DNA of 63,013 nt, filler included, from Candidatus Babelota bacterium (GTDB taxonomy: Bacteria; JAGOBX01): assembly GCA_017999075.1 (NCBI GenBank). It is 7 parts of 7 records of this genome, joined end to end, with 100 filler letters (N's around TTAATTAATTAA, not from the genome) between each part and the next. Parts side by side here need not be neighbours in the genome. Positions count along the whole stretch, not along the records: positions 18,216 to 27,147 come from JAGOBX010000119.1; 6 more parts are not named here. The stretch is one strand, 5' to 3'. Below, in pieces: positions 9,015-54,166 of this stretch. The notes below the pieces were generated by a model that saw only the letters and a list, made by a program, of their open reading frames with translations, was not told the origin of the DNA and ran no database searches. Numbering within the stretch: the first letter of the stretch is position 1; each line of letters starts with the position of its first letter. The position numbers were made by a program, and so were the translations under genes.

Positions 9015-9114
9015 NNNNNNNNNNNNNNNNNNNNNNNNNNNNNNNNNNNNNNNNNNNNTTAATTAATTAANNNNNNNNNNNNNNNNNNNNNNNNNNNNNN
9101 NNNNNNNNNNNNNN
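9015..9114. other. Artificial contig linker (N44-TTAATTAATTAA-N44)
   Basis: All-frame stop spacer flanked by N runs; the same structure recurs six times. Confidence 0.99.
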
Positions 9115-17466: not shown

Positions 17467-17712
17467 ATGTTGAAAAAAATAATTGCTTTAGGATTAATTG
17501 CAATTTTAGCTGTCAGCTTTGCTCTTGTAGGTTGTTCAAAACAAGAAGAAGCAGCTCCTGCTGCTGATCAAGCTGCTCCGGCTGCTGATGCTCCGGCTGC
17601 TCCGGCTGCTGATGCTCCAGCTGCTCCGGCTGCTGACGCTCCGGCTGCTCCTGCTGCTGATGCTCCAGCTGCTCCGGCTGCTGATGCTCCGGCTGCTGCT
17701 CCGGCAAAATAA
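17467..17712 (+). CDS. Small Ala/Pro-rich repeat lipoprotein
   Basis: Signal peptide with lipobox LVGC; mature part is CSKQEE + AAPAADQA + 5x APAADAPA + AAPAK; strong RBS. Confidence 0.9.
   Translation: MLKKIIALGLIAILAVSFALVGCSKQEEAAPAADQAAPAADAPAAPAADAPAAPAADAPAAPAADAPAAPAADAPAAAPAK
17551..17706 (+). repeat. 24-nt coding tandem repeat (APAADAPA)
   Basis: gctccggctgctgatgctccggct-type units with synonymous variation. Confidence 0.9.
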
Positions 17713-18115: not shown

Positions 18116-18215
18116 NNNNNNNNNNNNNNNNNNNNNNNNNNNNNNNNNNNNNNNNNNNNTTAATTAATTAANNNNNNNNNNNNNNNNNNNNNNNNNNNNN
18201 NNNNNNNNNNNNNNN
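18116..18215. other. Artificial contig linker
   Basis: N44-TTAATTAATTAA-N44. Confidence 0.99.
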
Positions 18216-18878
18216 AAAAGATTATCTCTTGAAAGTTTATTTTCTGAAATAAGCAAGAAAGATATTAATACTTTTAATATAATTTTGAAAGCGGATGGAA
18301 GAGGTTAAGGGGAAGCGATACATTCTTCTTTGAAGGAAATAGGAAATGAAAAACTTAAAGTCAATATAATACAGGAAGGCGTAGGAGCTATTACGGAATC
18401 AGACGTTACATTGGCCAGCGCTTCTGATGCAATAATTATAGGATTTAAAGTAAGACCTGAATCTATTGCAAGTTCTCTTGCCAAAAAAGAAAATATAGAA
18501 ATAAGGCTATATGATATTATATATAACCTTCTTGACGATGTTAAAGCAGCTATGACAGGAATGCTTGAATCTGTAATTGAAGAAACTGTTACAGGAAAAG
18601 CTCTGGTAAAAGAAGTTTTTAAAATTTCAAAATTAGGGAAAATTGCCGGAAGCGTAGTAATTGAAGGAAAAATATTATTCCCGTCTTATGCGAAACTTAT
18701 AAGAGATAATATTATGTTATACAATAGTAAATTATTCTCATTGAAACATTATAAAACCGAGGTTCGTGAAGTTGTTTCCGGAAAAGATTGCGGAATAGGC
18801 CTTGAAAATTATGAAGATATCAAAGAAGGCGATATAATCGAATGTTATATAAAAACCGAAAAAAAACAGGTTCTATAA
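18216..18878 (+). CDS. infB: Translation initiation factor IF-2, C-terminal fragment
   Basis: LSLESLF...IILKAD, GVGAITESDVTLASAS and DCGIG motifs. An in-frame TAA at 18306 near the contig end is probably a base-call error. Confidence 0.95.
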
Positions 18879-18909
18879 TATAATATTAAATCCGGTATTA
18901 CTTGGTTAA

Positions 18910-19470
18910 ATGTTCATAAATGTTATAACAAAAATATCAACTTTTTATTACAGATTATTTTATAAAATTATTTCGTTGTTTTGTAAAATAACATTTGTGA
19001 TATCTGATTCTCATTCAGCTATAAATCCTGCCATACTTGATAGAATAAAAAATATTAATAATAGTGTTGTGATACATTGCGGTGATTGGTCTGCGCCTGA
19101 AGACTATTATGAAATGAAAAAATTATGTGAAAAATTATATACGGTTCATGGAAATACTGAAACGTATGAGATGGAAAAGATTTTACCAAATGAATTAGAC
19201 ACGGAAATCAATGGAATTAAAATTCATGTGATTCATGAGCTTGACAGTTATAAAAAATATCTTGGATTATCCGGAGGAAGAGAGTATATAGTTTTACACG
19301 GACATACTCATCAACCTTCAAAAAAAAAAAATAAGTCAGTTTATTTTTTTAATCCAGGTTCATGCGGGCCAAAACGATTTTCGAATGTTCCAGCTTCATA
19401 CGGTGTTATTTATTTTTTTAAAAAATATTTCATATTTTCGGTGCACAAAATATGGTTTTATTACGAATAA
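18910..19470 (+). CDS. YfcE/MJ0936-type metallophosphoesterase
   Basis: SDSH, HCGD, HGN, GHTH and NPGS motifs. Confidence 0.9.
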   Translation: MFINVITKISTFYYRLFYKIISLFCKITFVISDSHSAINPAILDRIKNINNSVVIHCGDWSAPEDYYEMKKLCEKLYTVHGNTETYEMEKILPNELDTEINGIKIHVIHELDSYKKYLGLSGGREYIVLHGHTHQPSKKKNKSVYFFNPGSCGPKRFSNVPASYGVIYFFKKYFIFSVHKIWFYYE

Positions 19471-19532
19471 TAAAAAAAGGCTGTCAATTTTTTATTAAAA
19501 ATTAAAATGAAAACATTGAATTATTAAATATT

Positions 19533-21041
19533 ATGTCCGGATTATCATCATTAAAAAAAAATGCTGTAGAAACTTTTATAAGTTCATATCTAATACAGTT
19601 TGCTTCCAAATTTATAAGCATAATCACCCAATTAATTATAGCAAGATTTTTTTTATCTACAGAAGAATTCGGTATTTTCTTATATGTTTTTTTTATATTT
19701 TCTATTATAAACAATTTGCGCGATTTAGGAATATCCACTCAGGTTATCAGACAAAAAGATATTGATTATTCTTTGATAAATTCGCTGTTTTTTGTTTTAT
19801 CTTCCGCTATAACATTATTGCAAATAATATACGGTTGTTTTATTTACAAAACAAACCCTTCTTACAGTAAAGCTTTAATTTTTATGTCTCTAAGTTATGT
19901 ACCCACGGCGTTAGGTTCTGTTCCATCCATATATTTCGCACAAAATTTATTGATAAAAAAAACATTAAACGCGCGGATATCCTCAATGATTGCATATTTT
20001 TTTGGAGCTATAATGTTAACTTATGCGGGATTAGGAGCTTCCGGATTAGCATTAGCCAAATTTTTACAAAGCGCAGTTTTCACAATTTTAATTCGGATTA
20101 AAGCTTCTGATATAATAAAAACTAATTTTAAACTTTCAGGAACCAGAAATATTGTTAAGGAAAGCTACAAGTTTTTTATTAATGACAACCTTGGATTATT
20201 GACTACTGAAATATATAACTATGTTATAAAAAATTTTGTTTCAACTGCGTCTCTTGCAATTTACAGAGCAGCTTATTCACTTGTCGATATTCCGGTGAAT
20301 ATAATTGAACAGGCGTTTTACAAAGTAGCTTATCCAATGTTTTCTAAACTTTCTTCAGATAAAGAAAAATTACTGAACGCTTATTCTTTTTTAACAATAA
20401 TATTATTTTGTGTAGAAGTCCCTGTATATCTATATATTTTTTTCAACAGCGAACTGCTCATTTATTTTACTTATGGATCAAAATATTCTACATCTTCAGA
20501 AATGATAAAATGGCTTGCTTTTGTTCCTATTTTTACTCCATATACCACTTTTGGAATCGAATTATTCAAATCTTTAAAAAAAGACAATTGGCTTTTAACT
20601 TATATATTTATAGGGTCGTTTTTAATAATCCTGTTTTCGTTTATATTAACAGCTAATTATGGAATTAAAGGCACTGCTGCAGCAAATTATCTGGGATTGA
20701 ATTATTTTATAATTTATTATTTCATATACAAAAATTTTAAAAAACATTTTTATTACATATTAAAAAAAATGGCTGTAATATATTTGTTTCCAGCTTCATT
20801 GTTTTATATAACATCAAATACTGAATTTAAATTCGGTTTTTTGAAATCATCAGTAATTTTTTTTGCAAATTCTGTAAAACCTTTATCCGAAACTTTATAC
20901 AGAAAAATATCAGATTTGAATTTAAAACTTGAGATAATATCCCAAGGATTATACCATTTAATTTTTTTAGTTCTGATCTTTTATATATTTTATATTTTCA
21001 TTTATAAAAAAATGCAGAAAGAACTGGGTATTAAACTATAA
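19533..21041 (+). CDS. Wzx-type oligosaccharide flippase
   Basis: About 12-14 TM helices; IIARFFLSTEEFG and DLGIS N-terminal pattern. Confidence 0.85.
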   Translation: MSGLSSLKKNAVETFISSYLIQFASKFISIITQLIIARFFLSTEEFGIFLYVFFIFSIINNLRDLGISTQVIRQKDIDYSLINSLFFVLSSAITLLQIIYGCFIYKTNPSYSKALIFMSLSYVPTALGSVPSIYFAQNLLIKKTLNARISSMIAYFFGAIMLTYAGLGASGLALAKFLQSAVFTILIRIKASDIIKTNFKLSGTRNIVKESYKFFINDNLGLLTTEIYNYVIKNFVSTASLAIYRAAYSLVDIPVNIIEQAFYKVAYPMFSKLSSDKEKLLNAYSFLTIILFCVEVPVYLYIFFNSELLIYFTYGSKYSTSSEMIKWLAFVPIFTPYTTFGIELFKSLKKDNWLLTYIFIGSFLIILFSFILTANYGIKGTAAANYLGLNYFIIYYFIYKNFKKHFYYILKKMAVIYLFPASLFYITSNTEFKFGFLKSSVIFFANSVKPLSETLYRKISDLNLKLEIISQGLYHLIFLVLIFYIFYIFIYKKMQKELGIKL

Positions 21042-21090
21042 AATAAACCTAAAAAATATAACATTTATTTTTTTGGTTTATTTTATAGTT
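21034..21090. terminator. Inverted repeat between convergent genes, probable terminator
   Basis: Perfect 16-bp arms AACTATAAAATAAACC / GGTTTATTTTATAGTT. Confidence 0.55.
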
Positions 21091-21239
21091 AATAATATGC
21101 GTTGGATTAAATAATAGGATTAATAATTATTGCAGAATCAATCAATCATCCGCAAAAAACTTCCTTCACTATAAATATAACTGCATTTTAAAGAAGGTCC
21201 AGTTTTATATTATAATCCGTTTTTTAAAAACCCCAAGCA

Positions 21240-21527
21240 TTATATCAAGGTTTTAACCGCATCTTTAGAAATATTCCCTTGACATAATAAAGCCTGCGCC
21301 GGATTGCTCTGCAAAGCTGAATTCAAATTATTTACCATATCAGCAGCATCTTTTAATGTTACGATATCAACTCCAGCAGATTTTTGATTTTCACGTGAAA
21401 TATTCAAAATAACATCACTTACAGATTCTTCTTTAGAAAATTGAATCTTAGGGTATTTAATGCTGAAAATTTCTTCGTATTGTAATTTTGAAGTTTCACA
21501 TTGAAGATATGAATTTGAAATATTCAT
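21240..21527 (-). CDS. Small protein (95 aa) resembling the flagellin C-terminal helical region
   Basis: ATG 21527 has a GGAGGTG RBS 6 nt upstream. The C-terminal half LNISRENQKSAGVDIVTLKDAADMVNNLNSALQSNPAQALLCQGNISKDAVKTLI parallels the flagellin tail ENLxAAxSRIxDxDxAxEM...QAxLAQANxxPxxVLxLL. Confidence 0.7.
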   Translation of the reverse strand: MNISNSYLQCETSKLQYEEIFSIKYPKIQFSKEESVSDVILNISRENQKSAGVDIVTLKDAADMVNNLNSALQSNPAQALLCQGNISKDAVKTLI

Positions 21528-21579
21528 TTTGTTCACCTCCCTGATGTTTGACTTAAATCCTTTTAAGTTTCTATCATTA

Positions 21580-21607
21580 ATATCGGCAGATAGTAATAAA
21601 ATCTTTA
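21580..21607 (-). promoter_or_regulatory. sigma28 (FliA/SigD) promoter
   Basis: Minus strand reads TAAA-N16-GCCGATAT, ~53 nt upstream of ATG 21527. Confidence 0.85.
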
Positions 21608-21748
21608 GAAAAAAATAAAAAAAAATATCAACTCTATTTTTTTCAACAGGTTATTATTTATAAAAATAAAATATTGTTTACTGGTGTCCAATAAAAATTT
21701 AAAAAGGCAAAGGCAATGCCAAAGACTCATCCGGTTCGCCTGGCAATC

Positions 21749-21788
21749 ACTAAAAGCACTACACTAAAAGTGCCGACTAAAAGTGCCG
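21749..21788. repeat. Short intergenic tandem repeats (ACTAAAAG x3; ACTAAAAGTGCCG x2)
   Basis: Copies start at 21749, 21763 and 21776. Confidence 0.8.
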
Positions 21789-21869
21789 TATAGTCAAAAG
21801 TCATTTTCAATCATTTTTTGTCCATGATATTTCATGAAGCACCAAATATAATATAAGAAAATATCCGGA

Positions 21870-24800
21870 TTAGTCATTTTTAGATTTAATTTCATATAAT
21901 TTAAGCAACGATTTATAATATTCATTAAGTTCTTTTTTATAATAATCAGGCATAGAATTATTTAAAAATTTTTCTAATTCTACAGGCAGTCCGGACGATT
22001 TTTTTAAATCTACGGGCGGCGCAGACTTAGGTTTAACTTCTAAAGCCGCTTTTGATTCGCGTTTATCCTGATTTTCAGTTTCTTTTTTTAACGACCTTGA
22101 TGTATCTATGAGTTTATCATAAACCGATTTCTGAGATTCTTTAACTTGTTGATTTAATGTTCCTTTTTTAAGTGTTTTTTCTATTTTATTCATTTCATCA
22201 ACAAGTTTCTGTAATTTTTGCTGCAGAGCGTCGCCAGAATTAGTATTTGAATCCATAAGCTGCTCAAGAGATTGACGTATCAAAGACTGTTCGTAAGACA
22301 TTTGTTCAATCTGTTCCTGTGAAAGATCATTAAAATTAAACGACATTGAATTCAAGGATTGTTGAGCTTTAGCTAATTGTTCTAACCTATCAGACATATT
22401 GGAAGAATTATTTTTTTGATTATCTTTATTCAAATCTTCTTTAATTTTTAAAAGCTTGAATATAAGTGAAGATGTCGATTTCATTATTATATTTATTTTA
22501 TCAAGAGAACCTGCTGATGATTTATTTTTAAGAGAATCGCAAATATAACCGTACATATCGGAAATATATTTAAAATCTTCAATCAAATCAGCCGGAAAAA
22601 CAAAAGATTTCGCTGTTAATTGAAAATATTTTGCGCTTTGAATATATATATAATTTTGATATTCCTGACATAAATTAATAAAAAACGGATAATCCGCAGG
22701 AACAGAATTTATAAACTGATTGTTAGTTTCGCGTAAAATATCTTCAAAATTATTTTTCAATTCAAGATTTTTGTTCTGCAGATTAATCATTTTAAAAATA
22801 ATTGTCTCAATGTCCTGTTCAAATTTTTCAAATTCTTTATTACTCATTTGCGTCAAAAGATTATTTAATTGTTCGGCAAGATTAGATAATTTTTCTTTTA
22901 AATCATTACTTTCTTTTTCCATTTCATCTTTGTTTTTTTGAACTTCTGATTCAGTTCCAGATTTTTGATTTTTCATATTATTCGCCAATTTTTTTGATTG
23001 CTGATTTATTTTTGCCATTGTTTCTTTTATATTATCCAGAACTTTTTGAGTTTGCTTATCTTCAGAACTATTTTTCAAATCATCAACAGCCTGTTGAAGT
23101 TTTGAGAGTTCTGATGCGAGTTTTTCCTGCTGAATCGCACCTGATTCTAAATCATTTTTATTAATTGAAGATGTTATATCATTTTGTTTAAATTTTAAAT
23201 CATCTATAGTTTTCTGAATATTTTTAAGCGTATTCTGCATTTTAAGCCGGTTTAATAAAGACAAAGTTCTATCAATTTTTTTCCCGAATTCATCTTTATT
23301 GAAAACTGCATTTTTCAAAAATTCCTGCTGCTGCATAGGATTTTTAGAAGCTAACGCATTTTGAAAATCAGTTATAGATTTTTTTATATCGTTATCTCTC
23401 AATTCATCCATAAGCTTGTTTAATTTTGAAAGTTTTTCCAAAGTTTCTTCACCAAGCATTTCCCTGGTTTTTTTGTATTGCTCGACAGCCTTTGAAATGC
23501 GCGATTGAATTTCTTTGATTTCAGCTTCTATTTTTTTCTGCGCATCAAGAAGTTCTTTTATTTGTTTTTGTGTTGACCAATCCGAACTGTTTGATTTCAT
23601 CAAATCATTTATTAATTTTTTTGCGGATTTGGATATATCTTCATTTTTTGCCTGAATTGCATTCATAACATTAGTCGAATAATTAAATTCTTTGTTAAGT
23701 TCATTAAATAAATCAGCAACTGACGGAACTTTAAGTTTAAATTTTTTGGTAACAGCTTTTTTGAAACCGGAAACTGCATCGTTATCGTAAGCATCTGCAT
23801 AATAAAAAATTTCATCGCCAGGCATAACATCATATTTAGAAAAATCTATTGTATAGTATGCTGTATGATTAAGTGCTGTTTTTCGAAAATCGAGTTGAAA
23901 AGTATCCTTGATTATATCATTAAAAAAATATAAATTACCTGAACTTATACCGAAATCATCTTCTGCTGCAACAATAAAATAAGCAAGCATATCGTCAGGA
24001 AGCACAAATTCCTCTTTTCCCGGAAACTCAAAATTAACGGCAGGTTCCAAATCAGGTTTAACTGAAATATTAATTTTTTTCCTTGTTTCAGCAGGTATTG
24101 TTAATTTGGATTCAAAATAAAAACTTATTGTTCCTTCTGAAAAAGGTTTATACCTAAAAATATAATTCCTATTATTTTTTTCTGAATACCTGACAGAAAA
24201 ATTCCCATATTTTATAAAAAATTTTTCAGGTTCAAAATTGATATTACATTTAATTTCAATTTCTGAACCTTTAAGAATTTCTATTGTTTCATGAAATGAA
24301 TACAAAATATCAGTTTCAATATTAGAATACTGCGGAGGCATAATTTTTATATATTCGATATTTATAACAGGCTTAGTGTACGCGGTTATTAAATAACGTT
24401 TTGAAATAAATTTTTCTGCTGAAATATAATATTCAACATTGGAAATAATATTTTTCAGTGAATACGAAAAAGTATCCCTGGTTTGCTCCCTATTTGTTAA
24501 TGTTATTTTTTCATGGTCTCCGTTTGAAACTAAAGTCAAATCAACAGAACTTATTTTTTTTTCATATGATATAGGTTTAATCAGAATATTTACAGATTCA
24601 CCTTTTATTATTGCAATTGAACCTGGAGATACATTGAAGGATATTTTTTCAATAACTGTATCAGTTTTATAACAGTTTTTTATAAAATCTATAAGGCGCA
24701 AATAATTATATTTAAACAGTATGCCCTGAAAAGCAGCTCCTAATACAATTATAATTAATGCTCTATTTATCCTGCCATTTACAGGTCTTAAAATATATTC

Positions 24801-25190
24801 CAATTTTAATCTTGAAATATTAACTGCAATATCTTGAATTAATTTTTCTGTAAACGGATTGGACGGGTTAGATTTAAAGGCTGTATATACCGAAGAAATT
24901 TTATATGCAAGTTCCGGCGAAGATTTTTCAAATAAAATTATAAAAGACTTAAAATTATAAAACTCAGTCTTAAGTAAAATTATTATAAAAATAATTATTG
25001 CAAAACTTATTATTAATGGAAAAAAATTTTTTAACGCAAAAATTAAATTATTATCGAGTTGCGCCCAAACCGCCAAAATATTAAGCCATAAAATTATTAA
25101 AGAATATATTATGGACACATATAGTACAGCTGAAACCGCATTATACAGCCAAAAATATTTTTTTAATAATTTATACAAGTGATTTATCAT
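21870..25190 (-). CDS. DUF4175-like membrane-anchored protein (3 TM, Ig-like domains, long coiled coil)
   Basis: N-terminal TM helices; AEDDFGIS and YYADAYDNDAVSGFK motifs; Q/K/E-rich coiled coils; C-terminal PDYYKKELNEYYKSL. Confidence 0.75.
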   Translation of the reverse strand: MINHLYKLLKKYFWLYNAVSAVLYVSIIYSLIILWLNILAVWAQLDNNLIFALKNFFPLIISFAIIIFIIILLKTEFYNFKSFIILFEKSSPELAYKISSVYTAFKSNPSNPFTEKLIQDIAVNISRLKLEYILRPVNGRINRALIIIVLGAAFQGILFKYNYLRLIDFIKNCYKTDTVIEKISFNVSPGSIAIIKGESVNILIKPISYEKKISSVDLTLVSNGDHEKITLTNREQTRDTFSYSLKNIISNVEYYISAEKFISKRYLITAYTKPVINIEYIKIMPPQYSNIETDILYSFHETIEILKGSEIEIKCNINFEPEKFFIKYGNFSVRYSEKNNRNYIFRYKPFSEGTISFYFESKLTIPAETRKKINISVKPDLEPAVNFEFPGKEEFVLPDDMLAYFIVAAEDDFGISSGNLYFFNDIIKDTFQLDFRKTALNHTAYYTIDFSKYDVMPGDEIFYYADAYDNDAVSGFKKAVTKKFKLKVPSVADLFNELNKEFNYSTNVMNAIQAKNEDISKSAKKLINDLMKSNSSDWSTQKQIKELLDAQKKIEAEIKEIQSRISKAVEQYKKTREMLGEETLEKLSKLNKLMDELRDNDIKKSITDFQNALASKNPMQQQEFLKNAVFNKDEFGKKIDRTLSLLNRLKMQNTLKNIQKTIDDLKFKQNDITSSINKNDLESGAIQQEKLASELSKLQQAVDDLKNSSEDKQTQKVLDNIKETMAKINQQSKKLANNMKNQKSGTESEVQKNKDEMEKESNDLKEKLSNLAEQLNNLLTQMSNKEFEKFEQDIETIIFKMINLQNKNLELKNNFEDILRETNNQFINSVPADYPFFINLCQEYQNYIYIQSAKYFQLTAKSFVFPADLIEDFKYISDMYGYICDSLKNKSSAGSLDKINIIMKSTSSLIFKLLKIKEDLNKDNQKNNSSNMSDRLEQLAKAQQSLNSMSFNFNDLSQEQIEQMSYEQSLIRQSLEQLMDSNTNSGDALQQKLQKLVDEMNKIEKTLKKGTLNQQVKESQKSVYDKLIDTSRSLKKETENQDKRESKAALEVKPKSAPPVDLKKSSGLPVELEKFLNNSMPDYYKKELNEYYKSLLKLYEIKSKND

Positions 25191-26143
25191 ACAGCGCCAA
25201 GTTCCATTTCAAGTTTTTCAAATCGTGATTCTATAAGTTTAACCAAATTTCCGTTTACAAAAAGTTTATCGTTTTTGTCTCCTGTGTATGAATGAATTTT
25301 TATTAAATTTTCCGATGGAATTACGGTGTAATTATCATCAATAACAATAATTTTAGAAAGAATATATTCAGGAAGACTAAGGCGTTTAACTATGTATTGT
25401 AAATTTTTTTTATCGTATAAAGTAAAACTATTATCAAAATAATAATCAAAATATTCCGATATTCCACAAGATTTTACAGTATGATAAATATAATCAATAT
25501 CGCTCCTCGAAAAAATACACAAAATATAATTTTGCTTTAATCCGGCCAGGAATTCTGTTGTGTTAGGTCTTAAGTATGCTGAAACATTTTCATCAGTATA
25601 ATCCGGATTTACCAGAGTTCCGTCTAAATCAAAAACCAATATTTTTTTTTTTGATTTTAACTTTTGAATTTTTTCCTGATATTCGATCGTGATTTCAGCT
25701 ATAGTAACTTTATGCAATTCTTCGTTTTTAATTAGTTCCGCCAGTATTTCCTGAATAGCGTTGTACCCTTTAAATTTTTCTTTTAATTTTCTATAAAATT
25801 CAATTGTTTTATTTTCTTCTGCTATTGCAAATTTTATGAGCTGATCTATATTTTTTATTTGAGTTGATTCAACTAATTTAAAATTTGATTCAAGGCGTAA
25901 AATATGCTGAACTAATGCGTCAGGTTTAAAAACAGTATTGTTGAAAATATTTTTTGAAATACATTTAATATAATCTATATGTTTTTTTTCTTCATCAGCA
26001 AGCCTATTCAAGATTTGTTTCAAGCTGCTTATAGGAGTTAAACCTGAAAGATGTTTATAAAATTCAAATGACTTGAATTCGTTTTCAATTGAATTAATCA
26101 AAAGATTATAAAGCAATTTCAATTCTTTATCCGTAAAGCTCAT
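25187..26143 (-). CDS. Fusion of a ferritin-like (rubrerythrin-type) domain and an FCP1/SCP (NIF)-type HAD phosphatase
   Basis: N-terminal half has E..E/FY and LADEEKKH, repeated as AIAEE..FY and LIKNEELH. C-terminal half has KILVFDLDGTLV, YLRP, KKNL, IIVIDDN and NLIKIHSYTGDKND. Confidence 0.8.
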   Translation of the reverse strand: MSFTDKELKLLYNLLINSIENEFKSFEFYKHLSGLTPISSLKQILNRLADEEKKHIDYIKCISKNIFNNTVFKPDALVQHILRLESNFKLVESTQIKNIDQLIKFAIAEENKTIEFYRKLKEKFKGYNAIQEILAELIKNEELHKVTIAEITIEYQEKIQKLKSKKKILVFDLDGTLVNPDYTDENVSAYLRPNTTEFLAGLKQNYILCIFSRSDIDYIYHTVKSCGISEYFDYYFDNSFTLYDKKNLQYIVKRLSLPEYILSKIIVIDDNYTVIPSENLIKIHSYTGDKNDKLFVNGNLVKLIESRFEKLEMELGAV

Positions 26144-26160
26144 ATTTTAAATATATATTA

Positions 26161-27030
26161 TTAAAAAAACATTGAATTTAAGTTTACATACCACGATATA
26201 AATTCAGAACCAAGCAGAAAAGATAAAATTCCTGAAACACAAATAGCCGGAGCAAATGGTATTTGATCTTTTGTACCTTTTTTTTGAATTATCATAGCAG
26301 GTAATGCAAACAAAATGCCTATTACAAACGAAAAGAATACCATGAATAATGCTATTTTCCATCCTAGAAACGCGCCTATTCCAGCTGCTAACTTTACATC
26401 TCCAAAACCAAAAGCTTCTATTCCTTTTCTTGAATAATAAAATTCTGCAGCGATAAAAATAAATAAAAATATTCCACCTGCAACAGCTATTCCTGACAAT
26501 GAATTTAATAATGGTTTATACCACTCTCCAATAAATATGTGGTATAATTCCGGATGATTTAACGGATAAAAATTAAATAAAGAAAAAATAGGTCCTGCAA
26601 TTATAAGTCCTATTGAAAATCTATCAGGAATAATAAAATGATCAATATCAATAAATGTAACGATAATCATTACACAACTGAATGCCGCAAAAATAATTGA
26701 ATCTGCAGGATGGGTTGTAATATCAAAAAATTTTACCGCAGCAACAAACATTATCGCTGTCAATAATTCAATTAAAAAATATCTTGGCGAAATTTCAGTT
26801 TTACAATAACGACATTTTCCAAGCAATAATACATAACTCAGCAAAGGCGTTAAATCCGAAGCTTTTAAAATGGTTCCACATTTAGGACATCTGGACCGGT
26901 CTAAACCTATAGGTTTATTTTCAGGTATTCGTAAAATGCAGACATTTAAAAAACTCCCTACTGAAGCTCCAAATATAAAAGCCGTAAAATAAATTAAATC
27001 ACCGAACATATTAATTTCATCTGCAATCAT
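26161..27030 (-). CDS. pilD: Type IV prepilin peptidase / N-methyltransferase
   Basis: GSFLNVCILRIP, RSRCPKC, GKCRYC, DIDHFIIPD, GFGDVKL and IPFAP motifs. The start is uncertain (27030 or 27009 is more likely than 27123). Confidence 0.95.
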   Translation of the reverse strand: MIADEINMFGDLIYFTAFIFGASVGSFLNVCILRIPENKPIGLDRSRCPKCGTILKASDLTPLLSYVLLLGKCRYCKTEISPRYFLIELLTAIMFVAAVKFFDITTHPADSIIFAAFSCVMIIVTFIDIDHFIIPDRFSIGLIIAGPIFSLFNFYPLNHPELYHIFIGEWYKPLLNSLSGIAVAGGIFLFIFIAAEFYYSRKGIEAFGFGDVKLAAGIGAFLGWKIALFMVFFSFVIGILFALPAMIIQKKGTKDQIPFAPAICVSGILSFLLGSEFISWYVNLNSMFF

Positions 27031-27147
27031 ATTTTTATTATATTTAAAAAGAATATATTTTTCAAGAAAAAACAAAAATAATTCTATTTTTATTATAGAA
27101 TACAAATTTAATTTGACAAACAAAATAAAATCAGATAAACTTTATAC

Positions 27148-27247
27148 NNNNNNNNNNNNNNNNNNNNNNNNNNNNNNNNNNNNNNNNNNNNTTAATTAAT
27201 TAANNNNNNNNNNNNNNNNNNNNNNNNNNNNNNNNNNNNNNNNNNNN
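27148..27247. other. Artificial contig linker
   Basis: N44-TTAATTAATTAA-N44. Confidence 0.99.
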
Positions 27248-36135: not shown

Positions 36136-36235
36136 NNNNNNNNNNNNNNNNNNNNNNNNNNNNNNNNNNNNNNNNNNNNTTAATTAATTAANNNNNNNNN
36201 NNNNNNNNNNNNNNNNNNNNNNNNNNNNNNNNNNN
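36136..36235. other. Artificial contig linker
   Basis: N44-TTAATTAATTAA-N44. Confidence 0.99.
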
Positions 36236-45106: not shown

Positions 45107-45206
45107 NNNNNNNNNNNNNNNNNNNNNNNNNNNNNNNNNNNNNNNNNNNNTTAATTAATTAANNNNNNNNNNNNNNNNNNNNNNNNNNNNNNNNNNNNNN
45201 NNNNNN
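45107..45206. other. Artificial contig linker
   Basis: N44-TTAATTAATTAA-N44. Confidence 0.99.
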
Positions 45207-54066: not shown

Positions 54067-54166
54067 NNNNNNNNNNNNNNNNNNNNNNNNNNNNNNNNNN
54101 NNNNNNNNNNTTAATTAATTAANNNNNNNNNNNNNNNNNNNNNNNNNNNNNNNNNNNNNNNNNNNN
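54067..54166. other. Artificial contig linker
   Basis: N44-TTAATTAATTAA-N44. Confidence 0.99.

Follow-up and report, generated by a model that had tools for sequence, protein, structure and literature searches.

A conserved mini-protein derived from the flagellin C-terminus in Candidatus Babelota is a candidate ligand of FliW in the flagellin-FliW-CsrA switch

The partner switch formed by flagellin, FliW, and CsrA is known from B. subtilis, Campylobacter, and Borrelia. It is the textbook case of CsrA control at the protein level, with three players and a structural flagellin that doubles as the sensor. Binding of FliW to flagellin is reported to need a conserved asparagine (N255 in B. subtilis, N237 in T. 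pallidum, and N287 in B. burgdorferi; PMC12327847). FliW is reported to shield residues 240-260 of the B. subtilis flagellin Hag, in its D1-C region, and the chaperone FliS to be wrapped by Hag residues 275-300 (PMC6070490). CsrA N55 is reported to touch FliW Q124 in the same species (bioRxiv 10.1101/2020.07.02.184341). A second flagellin-based circuit is described for FljJ of C. crescentus, which reportedly cannot build a filament alone, co-represses translation of the other flagellins together with FlbT and FlaF, and relieves this repression by its own secretion (PMC7591256). Here, we analyzed a stretch of 63,013 nucleotides (nt), filler included, from a Candidatus Babelota bacterium (GenBank assembly GCA_017999075.1), hereafter the window, and describe in it a gene for a 95-amino-acid (aa) protein, the mini-flagellin, in which a short N-terminus specific to the family precedes the final ~57 residues of a flagellin (D1-C and D0-C). 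On balance, we lean toward reading the mini-flagellin as a non-polymerizing flagellin mimic whose role in the flagellin-FliW-CsrA switch is to titrate FliW and probably also FliS.

The source metagenome-assembled genome (G000; 3.83 Mb, 594 contigs, 87% complete) is one of four species genomes of this phylum in our collection (G000, G001, G002, and G003). Six public sequencing runs contain the stretch, with no RNA run listed among them. The gene lies on contig C260 (8.9 kb), which occupies window positions 18216-27147, and its coding region has the following parts.

21240..21527, minus strand: mini-flagellin coding sequence (P0001, 95 aa), ATG at 21527, stop codon 21240-21242 included
21414..21527, minus strand: N-terminal part, residues 1-38, family-specific M-x-I-S-x-S-Y-L-x-x-E-T...
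21243..21413, minus strand: region homologous to the flagellin C-terminus (D1-C and D0-C), residues 39-95
21387..21401, minus strand: I-S-R-E-N motif, residues 43-47, predicted FliW-docking element; I43, E46, and N47 invariant

The ribosome site GGAGGTG stands upstream of the ATG at 21534-21540 (minus strand), as an earlier note on this sequence had described for its 95-aa open reading frame (ORF). An automated ORF listing opens the frame three codons earlier, at a GTG start (98 aa).

Profile comparison tied the tail of the protein to flagellin. When the family was aligned by hhalign with 10 flagellins of the four phylum genomes, residues 39-95 of the mini-flagellin fell on flagellin residues 235-291 of 292 over 57 columns with zero gaps (Prob 93.7%, E 2e-7). 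The family profile matched the C-termini of G000 flagellins at E values of 8e-6 to 4.7e-4, and seven of the 13 Protein Data Bank (PDB) sequence matches at E<=10 were flagellins, each hit at its extreme C-terminus (best E 5.4e-4). Residues 1-36 had no flagellin likeness in hhalign comparisons with flagellin N-termini or whole flagellins (E 0.67 and 0.49); the N-terminal part (residues 1-38) is a possible export signal. Neither Pfam nor NCBIfam returned a relevant family for the protein by itself, a Pfam search with all 20 family members gave no flagellar family, and neither PF00700 (Flagellin_C) nor PF04316 (FlgM) matched any of the 20 at E<=10; the query alone also failed in single-sequence Pfam. 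The earlier note had assigned the last ~55 aa to the flagellin C-terminus, held the flagellin N-terminal helices to be absent, and called the segment DVILNISRE FlgM-like. Homology of residues 39-95 bears out the first of these assignments without any match to PF00700, and the second agrees with the comparisons of residues 1-36. The third has to be given up, since the hhalign alignment spans residues 39-95 and so places DVILNISRE in the flagellin D1-C helix. An AlphaFold2 monomer model had a mean pLDDT of 62 and a pTM of 0.27, with helices at 6-20, 36-50, 55-74, 76-82, and 88-94 and breaks at 75 and 83-87. Such a low-confidence helical monomer fits a flagellin terminus that would fold only on a partner.

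The best-conserved part of the family is the I-S-R-E-N motif. Among the 20 members, columns L41, I43, E46, N47, P76, A79, and N85 are invariant, K49, Q83, and G84 are nearly so, and the terminal L-(I/L) is conserved. E46-N47, found in 20 of 20, align with the (K/R)-E-N of flagellins. The flagellins of G000 carry ISREN or IAKEN at this position, and its CsrA reads ...EIQREN55LL...; because ISREN occurs in both the mini-flagellin and at least one G000 flagellin and IQREN in CsrA, we regard these as one common motif. Other flagellin features are gone. AESRIRDVD, the strongest motif of the flagellins, was lost in all seven mini-flagellin copies of the phylum and kept in all five flagellins aligned with them. 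The D0-N/D1-N helices and the ESRIRDxD motif are important for filament packing. An invariant proline, Pro76, stands where D1-C meets D0-C, a place at which flagellins have Q-A-G in an unbroken helix. It would disfavor the uninterrupted long helix found in the filament, and not the kinked chaperone-bound form reported in PMC7248283. Between G000 and its G002 orthologue, dN/dS was 0.139 (dN 0.181, dS 1.30), and the ratio was low in both halves (N-terminal half: dN 0.148, dS 1.50), a substitution pattern which indicates that the gene is under purifying selection.

Homologues were found inside and outside the phylum. An exhaustive single-sequence search returned 10 representatives of 93-102 aa among 1.84 billion, and a profile search returned 17 clusters of 95-123 aa, whose given names were only "hypothetical." With all homologues at 93-123 aa, they are of the same length class and are not fragments of full-length flagellins, two points on which the earlier note had made its interpretation depend. 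The gene occurs in all four phylum genomes, three of which hold a second copy.

G000:C569:50-346 (L021): second mini-flagellin copy of G000
G003:C25:50398-50709 (L087:6896-7213): second mini-flagellin copy of G003
G001:C3:93513-93785 (L023): second mini-flagellin copy of G001

The second copies of G003 and G001 lie behind a sigma-70-like TTGAnn-N17-TAnAAT box, with no sigma-28 box; the contig of the second G000 copy ends 49 nt upstream. The two G001 copies are most alike to each other (39% identity), and the copies are therefore not simple orthologue pairs. The second G003 copy stands 4.6 kb downstream of fliS, with a helicase, a glycosyltransferase, and a radical-SAM enzyme nearby. No conserved or flagellar neighbors were present among 15 ORFs around the G002, G003, and G001 copies, and the neighborhoods differ between genomes. 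A search of genome contigs for related loci returned only one locus, a close relative.

In a 401-genome sample, 11 genomes matched the family profile at E<=1e-4. In five of them (G076, G122, G203, G208, and G238), the match fell on the C-terminus of a longer frame (220-654 aa), and these frames are taken as flagellin-family proteins. Short ORFs were matched in the other six, namely, the four phylum genomes and two from outside the phylum, G035 and G323.

G035:C21 (L094:973-1743) and G323:C13 (L100:629-1824): distant homologues (100 and 107 aa, respectively)

Both lie in fliS gene clusters, in the order fliD-fliS-mini-flagellin in G035 and fliS-152-aa ORF-mini-flagellin in G323. Pfam and NCBIfam gave nothing usable for the G035 and G323 homologues or for the ORFs after fliS. 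In the ESM Atlas, the nearest clusters were unnamed proteins of 82-105 aa from Thermodesulfobacteriota and Verrucomicrobiota (score 0.95); the secreted type III secretion system regulator ExsE scored 0.89, and a 117-aa Bacillota cluster, 69% of whose members have Flagellin_C, scored 0.88. We treat these matches as leads; C-terminal-only flagellin pieces may be more widespread.

In three genomes, the gene after fliS is an ORF of 123-152 aa that matched no family. The strongest clue to its identity, a FlgN match to the 125-aa ORF, was at E 0.42; the ORF may encode a chaperone of the FliT or FlgN type.

G000:C218:780-1157 (L015), G003 L087:2503-2874, and G323 L100:1031-1489: ORFs following fliS

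Three elements flank the coding sequence on its own strand.

21580..21607, minus strand: putative sigma-28-type promoter, with TAAA as -35 element (21604-21607), a 16-nt spacer, and GCCGATAT as -10 element (21580-21587)
21528..21573, minus strand: putative 5' leader with two GGA elements, possible CsrA sites
21130..21155, minus strand: 3' hairpin TTGCGGA...TTCTGCAA, ~85 nt past the stop, local fold -7.6 kcal/mol, common to G002

The pattern TAAA-N16-GCCGATA matched at 21581-21607, against an expectation of 0.14 for the window; one or more matches also arose in 13 of 100 shuffles. Taken by itself, this lone match is weak evidence. Conservation offers stronger support: TAAAG-N15/16-GCCGAT(A/T) stands upstream of the orthologue in all four phylum genomes, which represent three genera. 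The motif is exact in three of the four orthologues, 46-53 nt from the ATG, and reads GCCGATTA in G003. The occurrence of TAAA-N15/16-GCCGATAA at a conserved distance from the gene fits membership in a sigma-28 regulon. Genome-wide, exact matches number 26 in G000, compared with an average of 11.7 over 10 Markov-1 simulations. An ORF with a ribosome site lies within 250 nt of seven of the 26, and the genes so placed include those for the mini-flagellin, FliD (FliD_N and FliD_C), an SLT transglycosylase, an Imm5-like protein, and a transposase; the box thus also precedes G000 fliD. The genome encodes FliA (236 bits against a cut-off of 190), FliS, flagellins, and a fliW-csrA pair. The sigma-28-type promoter proposed in the earlier note, its retention in orthologues, and the presence of fliA and flagellar genes in the genome are all upheld by these observations.

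In the leader, a 7-bp A/U-rich hairpin (21551-21568) bears AGGA in its loop, and the second GGA element is the GGAGGTG of the ribosome site. AAGGA occurs upstream of the ribosome site in five of seven phylum leaders, compared with four of 298 (1.3%) Shine-Dalgarno-bearing G000 genes, a pattern that is compatible with CsrA control. On the 3' side, a conserved AAAACTGGACCT (21195-21206, minus strand) precedes the hairpin, whose loop is TGATTGATTGA, and an alignment of downstream regions showed 21130-21206 (minus strand) to be nearly identical in G002. The corresponding place in G003 and G001 holds classical G+C hairpins with T-run terminators, and the G003 loop is similar (CTGACTGA). The hairpin may mark where the transcript stops; G000 lacks a T run.

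The upstream regions of flagellin-family genes on G000:C342, C352, C537, C272, C412, and C560 were also inspected. Two FlaB-like genes have a GGATGTTTAAT...GAGGGC element in common, and CsrA-site-like sequences (CAAGGAT or GGA in a hairpin) stand upstream of several of the genes.

Docking to FliW was modeled with G000 FliW (11-sequence alignment) and the mini-flagellin (20-sequence alignment). Over three runs, ipSAE was 0.83, 0.81, and 0.82, compared with 0.00 for the best of three controls, and passed a mark that 116 of 157 solved complexes and two of 215 mismatched pairs reach. The runs had at least 77% of contacts in common, with a partner pLDDT of at least 57. The modeled interface comprises mini-flagellin residues 36-69 and leaves the N-terminal part mostly outside. 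N47 contacts FliW residues 25-28, 58, 95, 109, and 125 in the model. The FliW alignment shows no variation at F58, N109, and Q125, which correspond to F58, N108, and Q124 of B. subtilis, the "CsrA N55 proximal cluster," so that N47 is predicted to sit in the FliW pocket otherwise holding CsrA N55. A PDB sequence match between the mini-flagellin and 5dmb_D was weak and not significant (E 0.51). fliW-csrA pairs are encoded in all four phylum genomes, and FliW is also present in G035 and G323.

From these data, we propose that the mini-flagellin probably takes part, as an additional and so far undescribed component, in the switch by which flagellin synthesis is kept in step with flagellum assembly. 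The proposal draws on the observed homology, on the observed conservation of the gene and its promoter motif, on a genome that encodes every partner, and on a modeled docking to FliW. The gene would be transcribed late from its own sigma-28 promoter, and its leader may be under CsrA control. The invariant I-x-R-E-N would enter the FliW pocket otherwise filled by the asparagine of flagellin or CsrA, and the D0-C-like tail probably also binds FliS, as suggested by homology and by the two distant homologues adjacent to fliS. While in the cytoplasm, the mini-flagellin would hold FliW, leave CsrA free, and so damp flagellin translation; if it is exported as flagellin is, its loss from the cell would report an open export gate. 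CsrA control of its mRNA, its export, and the sign of the regulatory effect are steps that we infer. The earlier note had suggested a decoy or titrator of FliS or of the FliW/CsrA circuit, and it is the FliW/CsrA branch of that suggestion that the complex model favors.

Several observations weigh against this proposal. The mini-flagellin lacks the flagellin N-terminal region, and the N-terminal 72 residues of B. subtilis flagellin are reported to suffice for FliW binding (PMC6070490); it therefore carries only one of two FliW contact regions. The high score of the complex model may stem from likeness to the solved CsrA-FliW structure PDB 5DMB; the model speaks for likeness and not for binding. 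In the 5wjx row of the PDB matches, mini-flagellin profile positions 32-95 pair with Hag 238-303. Counted back from the C-terminus, N47 would be Hag residue 255, a provisional equivalence, since the Hag range is two residues longer than that of the mini-flagellin; the EN asparagine of Hag is N255. Pfam Flagellin_C recognizes none of the family members, as noted above. No exact TAAA-N14-16-GCCGATA box was found within 160 nt upstream of any of eight G000 flagellin-family genes (one with 105 nt to the contig end), and co-regulation with flagellin is for that reason not demonstrated. The fold of the leader hairpin is not significant (-5.1 kcal/mol, z -1.14), and the hairpin was seen in G000 and G002 alone (two of four orthologues). 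Finally, the sigma-70-like promoter of the second copies is unaccounted for by the proposal.

The tail might instead act chiefly on FliS. As a decoy or export-gate competitor, it would load FliS, compete with FliS-flagellin at FlhA, and limit export or filament length, with FliW docking incidental. Residues ~67-95 are homologous to flagellin D0-C, and A79, Q83, G84, N85, and the terminal L-(I/L) within them are conserved; the two distant homologues follow fliS closely, the second G003 copy is 4.6 kb from it, and FlaG, found in only one of the four phylum genomes (G001), leaves room for an analogue. However, the strictest conservation falls on I-x-R-E-N in D1-C, outside the FliS-wrapping segment, and the FliW model reached 0.82 against 0.00. 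We consider a role confined to FliS rather unlikely, but it is compatible with titration of FliW, and the two are not mutually exclusive. Lower still do we rate a positive assembly factor, that is, a FliS-FliW bridging adaptor or co-chaperone like HP1076, or a first-exported primer, and no titrator. The order fliS-(ORF)-mini-flagellin in G035 and G323 and the retention of both FliW and FliS contact regions would suit such a factor, and HP1076 and the flagellin D1 domain are reported to share a docking site on FliS (PMC7248283). Yet no sequence or profile link to HP1076 was found, and the predicted FliW site is that of CsrA, which suggests competition rather than bridging.

Two further explanations are much less probable. 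Descent from a flagellin C-terminus is clear and would also be expected of a functionless, decaying flagellin remnant or of a minor structural piece of the filament, but both are at odds with a length held at 93-123 aa over 17 clusters and six genomes, a dN/dS of 0.139, a conserved promoter, and two copies in three of the four phylum genomes. They are also hard to reconcile with the missing D0-N/D1-N helices and ESRIRDxD and with an invariant Pro76 where flagellins have an unbroken helix. We regard this pair of explanations as very improbable and, given the dN/dS and the constant length, reject a pseudogene, in agreement with the earlier note. An anti-sigma-28 factor of the FlgM type would have the right size, a sigma-28-type promoter, and a low-confidence monomer model, and the G000 assembly, 87% complete, has no PF04316 match of its own. 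Against this stand the absence of PF04316 matches at E<=10 among the 20 family members, the flagellin D1-C origin of the supposed FlgM-like segment, and canonical FlgM above the cut-off at another locus in the other three phylum genomes, including G002 of the same genus, which makes FlgM identity unlikely in itself. We reject that identity and give it the lowest standing of all, close to negligible.

If the mini-flagellin does titrate FliW as proposed, evolution can separate the sensing role of flagellin from its structural role, and the protein would be a natural minimal FliW-binding, perhaps also FliS-binding, peptide for studying how FliW chooses its partners. Through the proposal, a family that Pfam and NCBIfam miss and that sits in the fliS operon in two other lineages also acquires a name and a function open to testing. 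In the literature, as judged by titles and abstract openings, no C-terminal-only flagellin mimic was found. A bolder and rather doubtful extension would make the mini-flagellin a "proxy flagellin," a third, purpose-built FliW ligand that turns the switch into a four-part circuit. The sigma-28 and sigma-70-type copies, one of each per genome, would determine the threshold before the hook is complete and afterward, FliS would hand the protein to the export gate, and its secretion, not that of bulk flagellin, would report opening. The class may have been overlooked in several phyla, which would include the one studied here and the lineages of both G035 and G323, with the ESM Atlas clusters as further possible members.

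The window joins approximately seven G000 contigs via paired 44-base N runs and is not one genome stretch; gene neighborhood can therefore be read only inside each ~9-kb piece.

9015-9114, 18116-18215, 27148-27247, 36136-36235, 45107-45206, and 54067-54166: N-filled joins of the window

The 8.9 kb of C260 visible here hold no flagellar gene beside the mini-flagellin, which stands alone as the earlier note had it. Its neighbors are genes for IF-2, a phosphoesterase, a convergent polysaccharide flippase, a 1106-aa protein without a Pfam family, and a rubrerythrin-NIF phosphatase fusion. The 1106-aa protein (21870-25190, minus strand) has K/E/N/Q coiled-coil-like stretches and an N-terminal membrane segment, and its gene is directly preceded by that of the rubrerythrin-NIF/HAD phosphatase fusion (25187-26143, minus strand). 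On another contig, an 81-aa ORF (17467-17712, plus strand) has a lipoprotein-like N-terminus (...LVGC) followed by ~8 AP-AAD-type repeats.

Among described proteins, the small flagellar factors resemble the mini-flagellin in part. HP1076, the FliS co-chaperone of H. pylori, is likewise reported as a small flagellin-like helical protein in the flagellin docking site on the chaperone (PMC7248283), but it has 171 aa, no sequence relation as far as tested, and no FliW link, and it binds FliS where flagellin D1 does. FlgM (PF04316) is small, has a sigma-28-dependent promoter, and is probably disordered when free, as the mini-flagellin may be, but its profile does not match the mini-flagellin and a canonical FlgM is found elsewhere in three of the four phylum genomes. 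FlaG (PF03646) is another small late flagellar protein, reported to limit filament length by antagonizing FliS-flagellin at FlhA (PMC11536152). Unlike the mini-flagellin, it acts on FlhA and has no flagellin-like tail, and PF03646 matched none of the 20 mini-flagellin members.

The likeness is closer to the partners of the switch itself. In its C-terminal extension, CsrA reads IQREN55 where the mini-flagellin reads ISREN47, and N47 is modeled against FliW Q125, F58, and N109; the RNA-binding CsrA fold is absent from the mini-flagellin, the rest of which is of flagellin origin. With flagellin (Hag, FliC, or FlaB), it has in common the homologous D1-C/D0-C tail, the (K/R)-E-N motif, the same predicted FliW pocket, and GGA elements in the leader. 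It differs in having 95 aa instead of 270-300 and in lacking D0-N/D1-N, the N-terminal FliW contact, and a detectable polymerization core, as well as ESRIRDxD; it has the invariant Pro76 and falls below the Pfam Flagellin_C threshold. FljJ is also derived from flagellin, and its job is regulation, but FljJ is full-length, is assembled into the filament, and works with FlbT and not with FliW-CsrA, whereas the mini-flagellin is a C-terminal piece only. By analogy, then, the mini-flagellin would work most like flagellin in the Hag-FliW-CsrA switch, and FljJ appears to be its closest conceptual counterpart.

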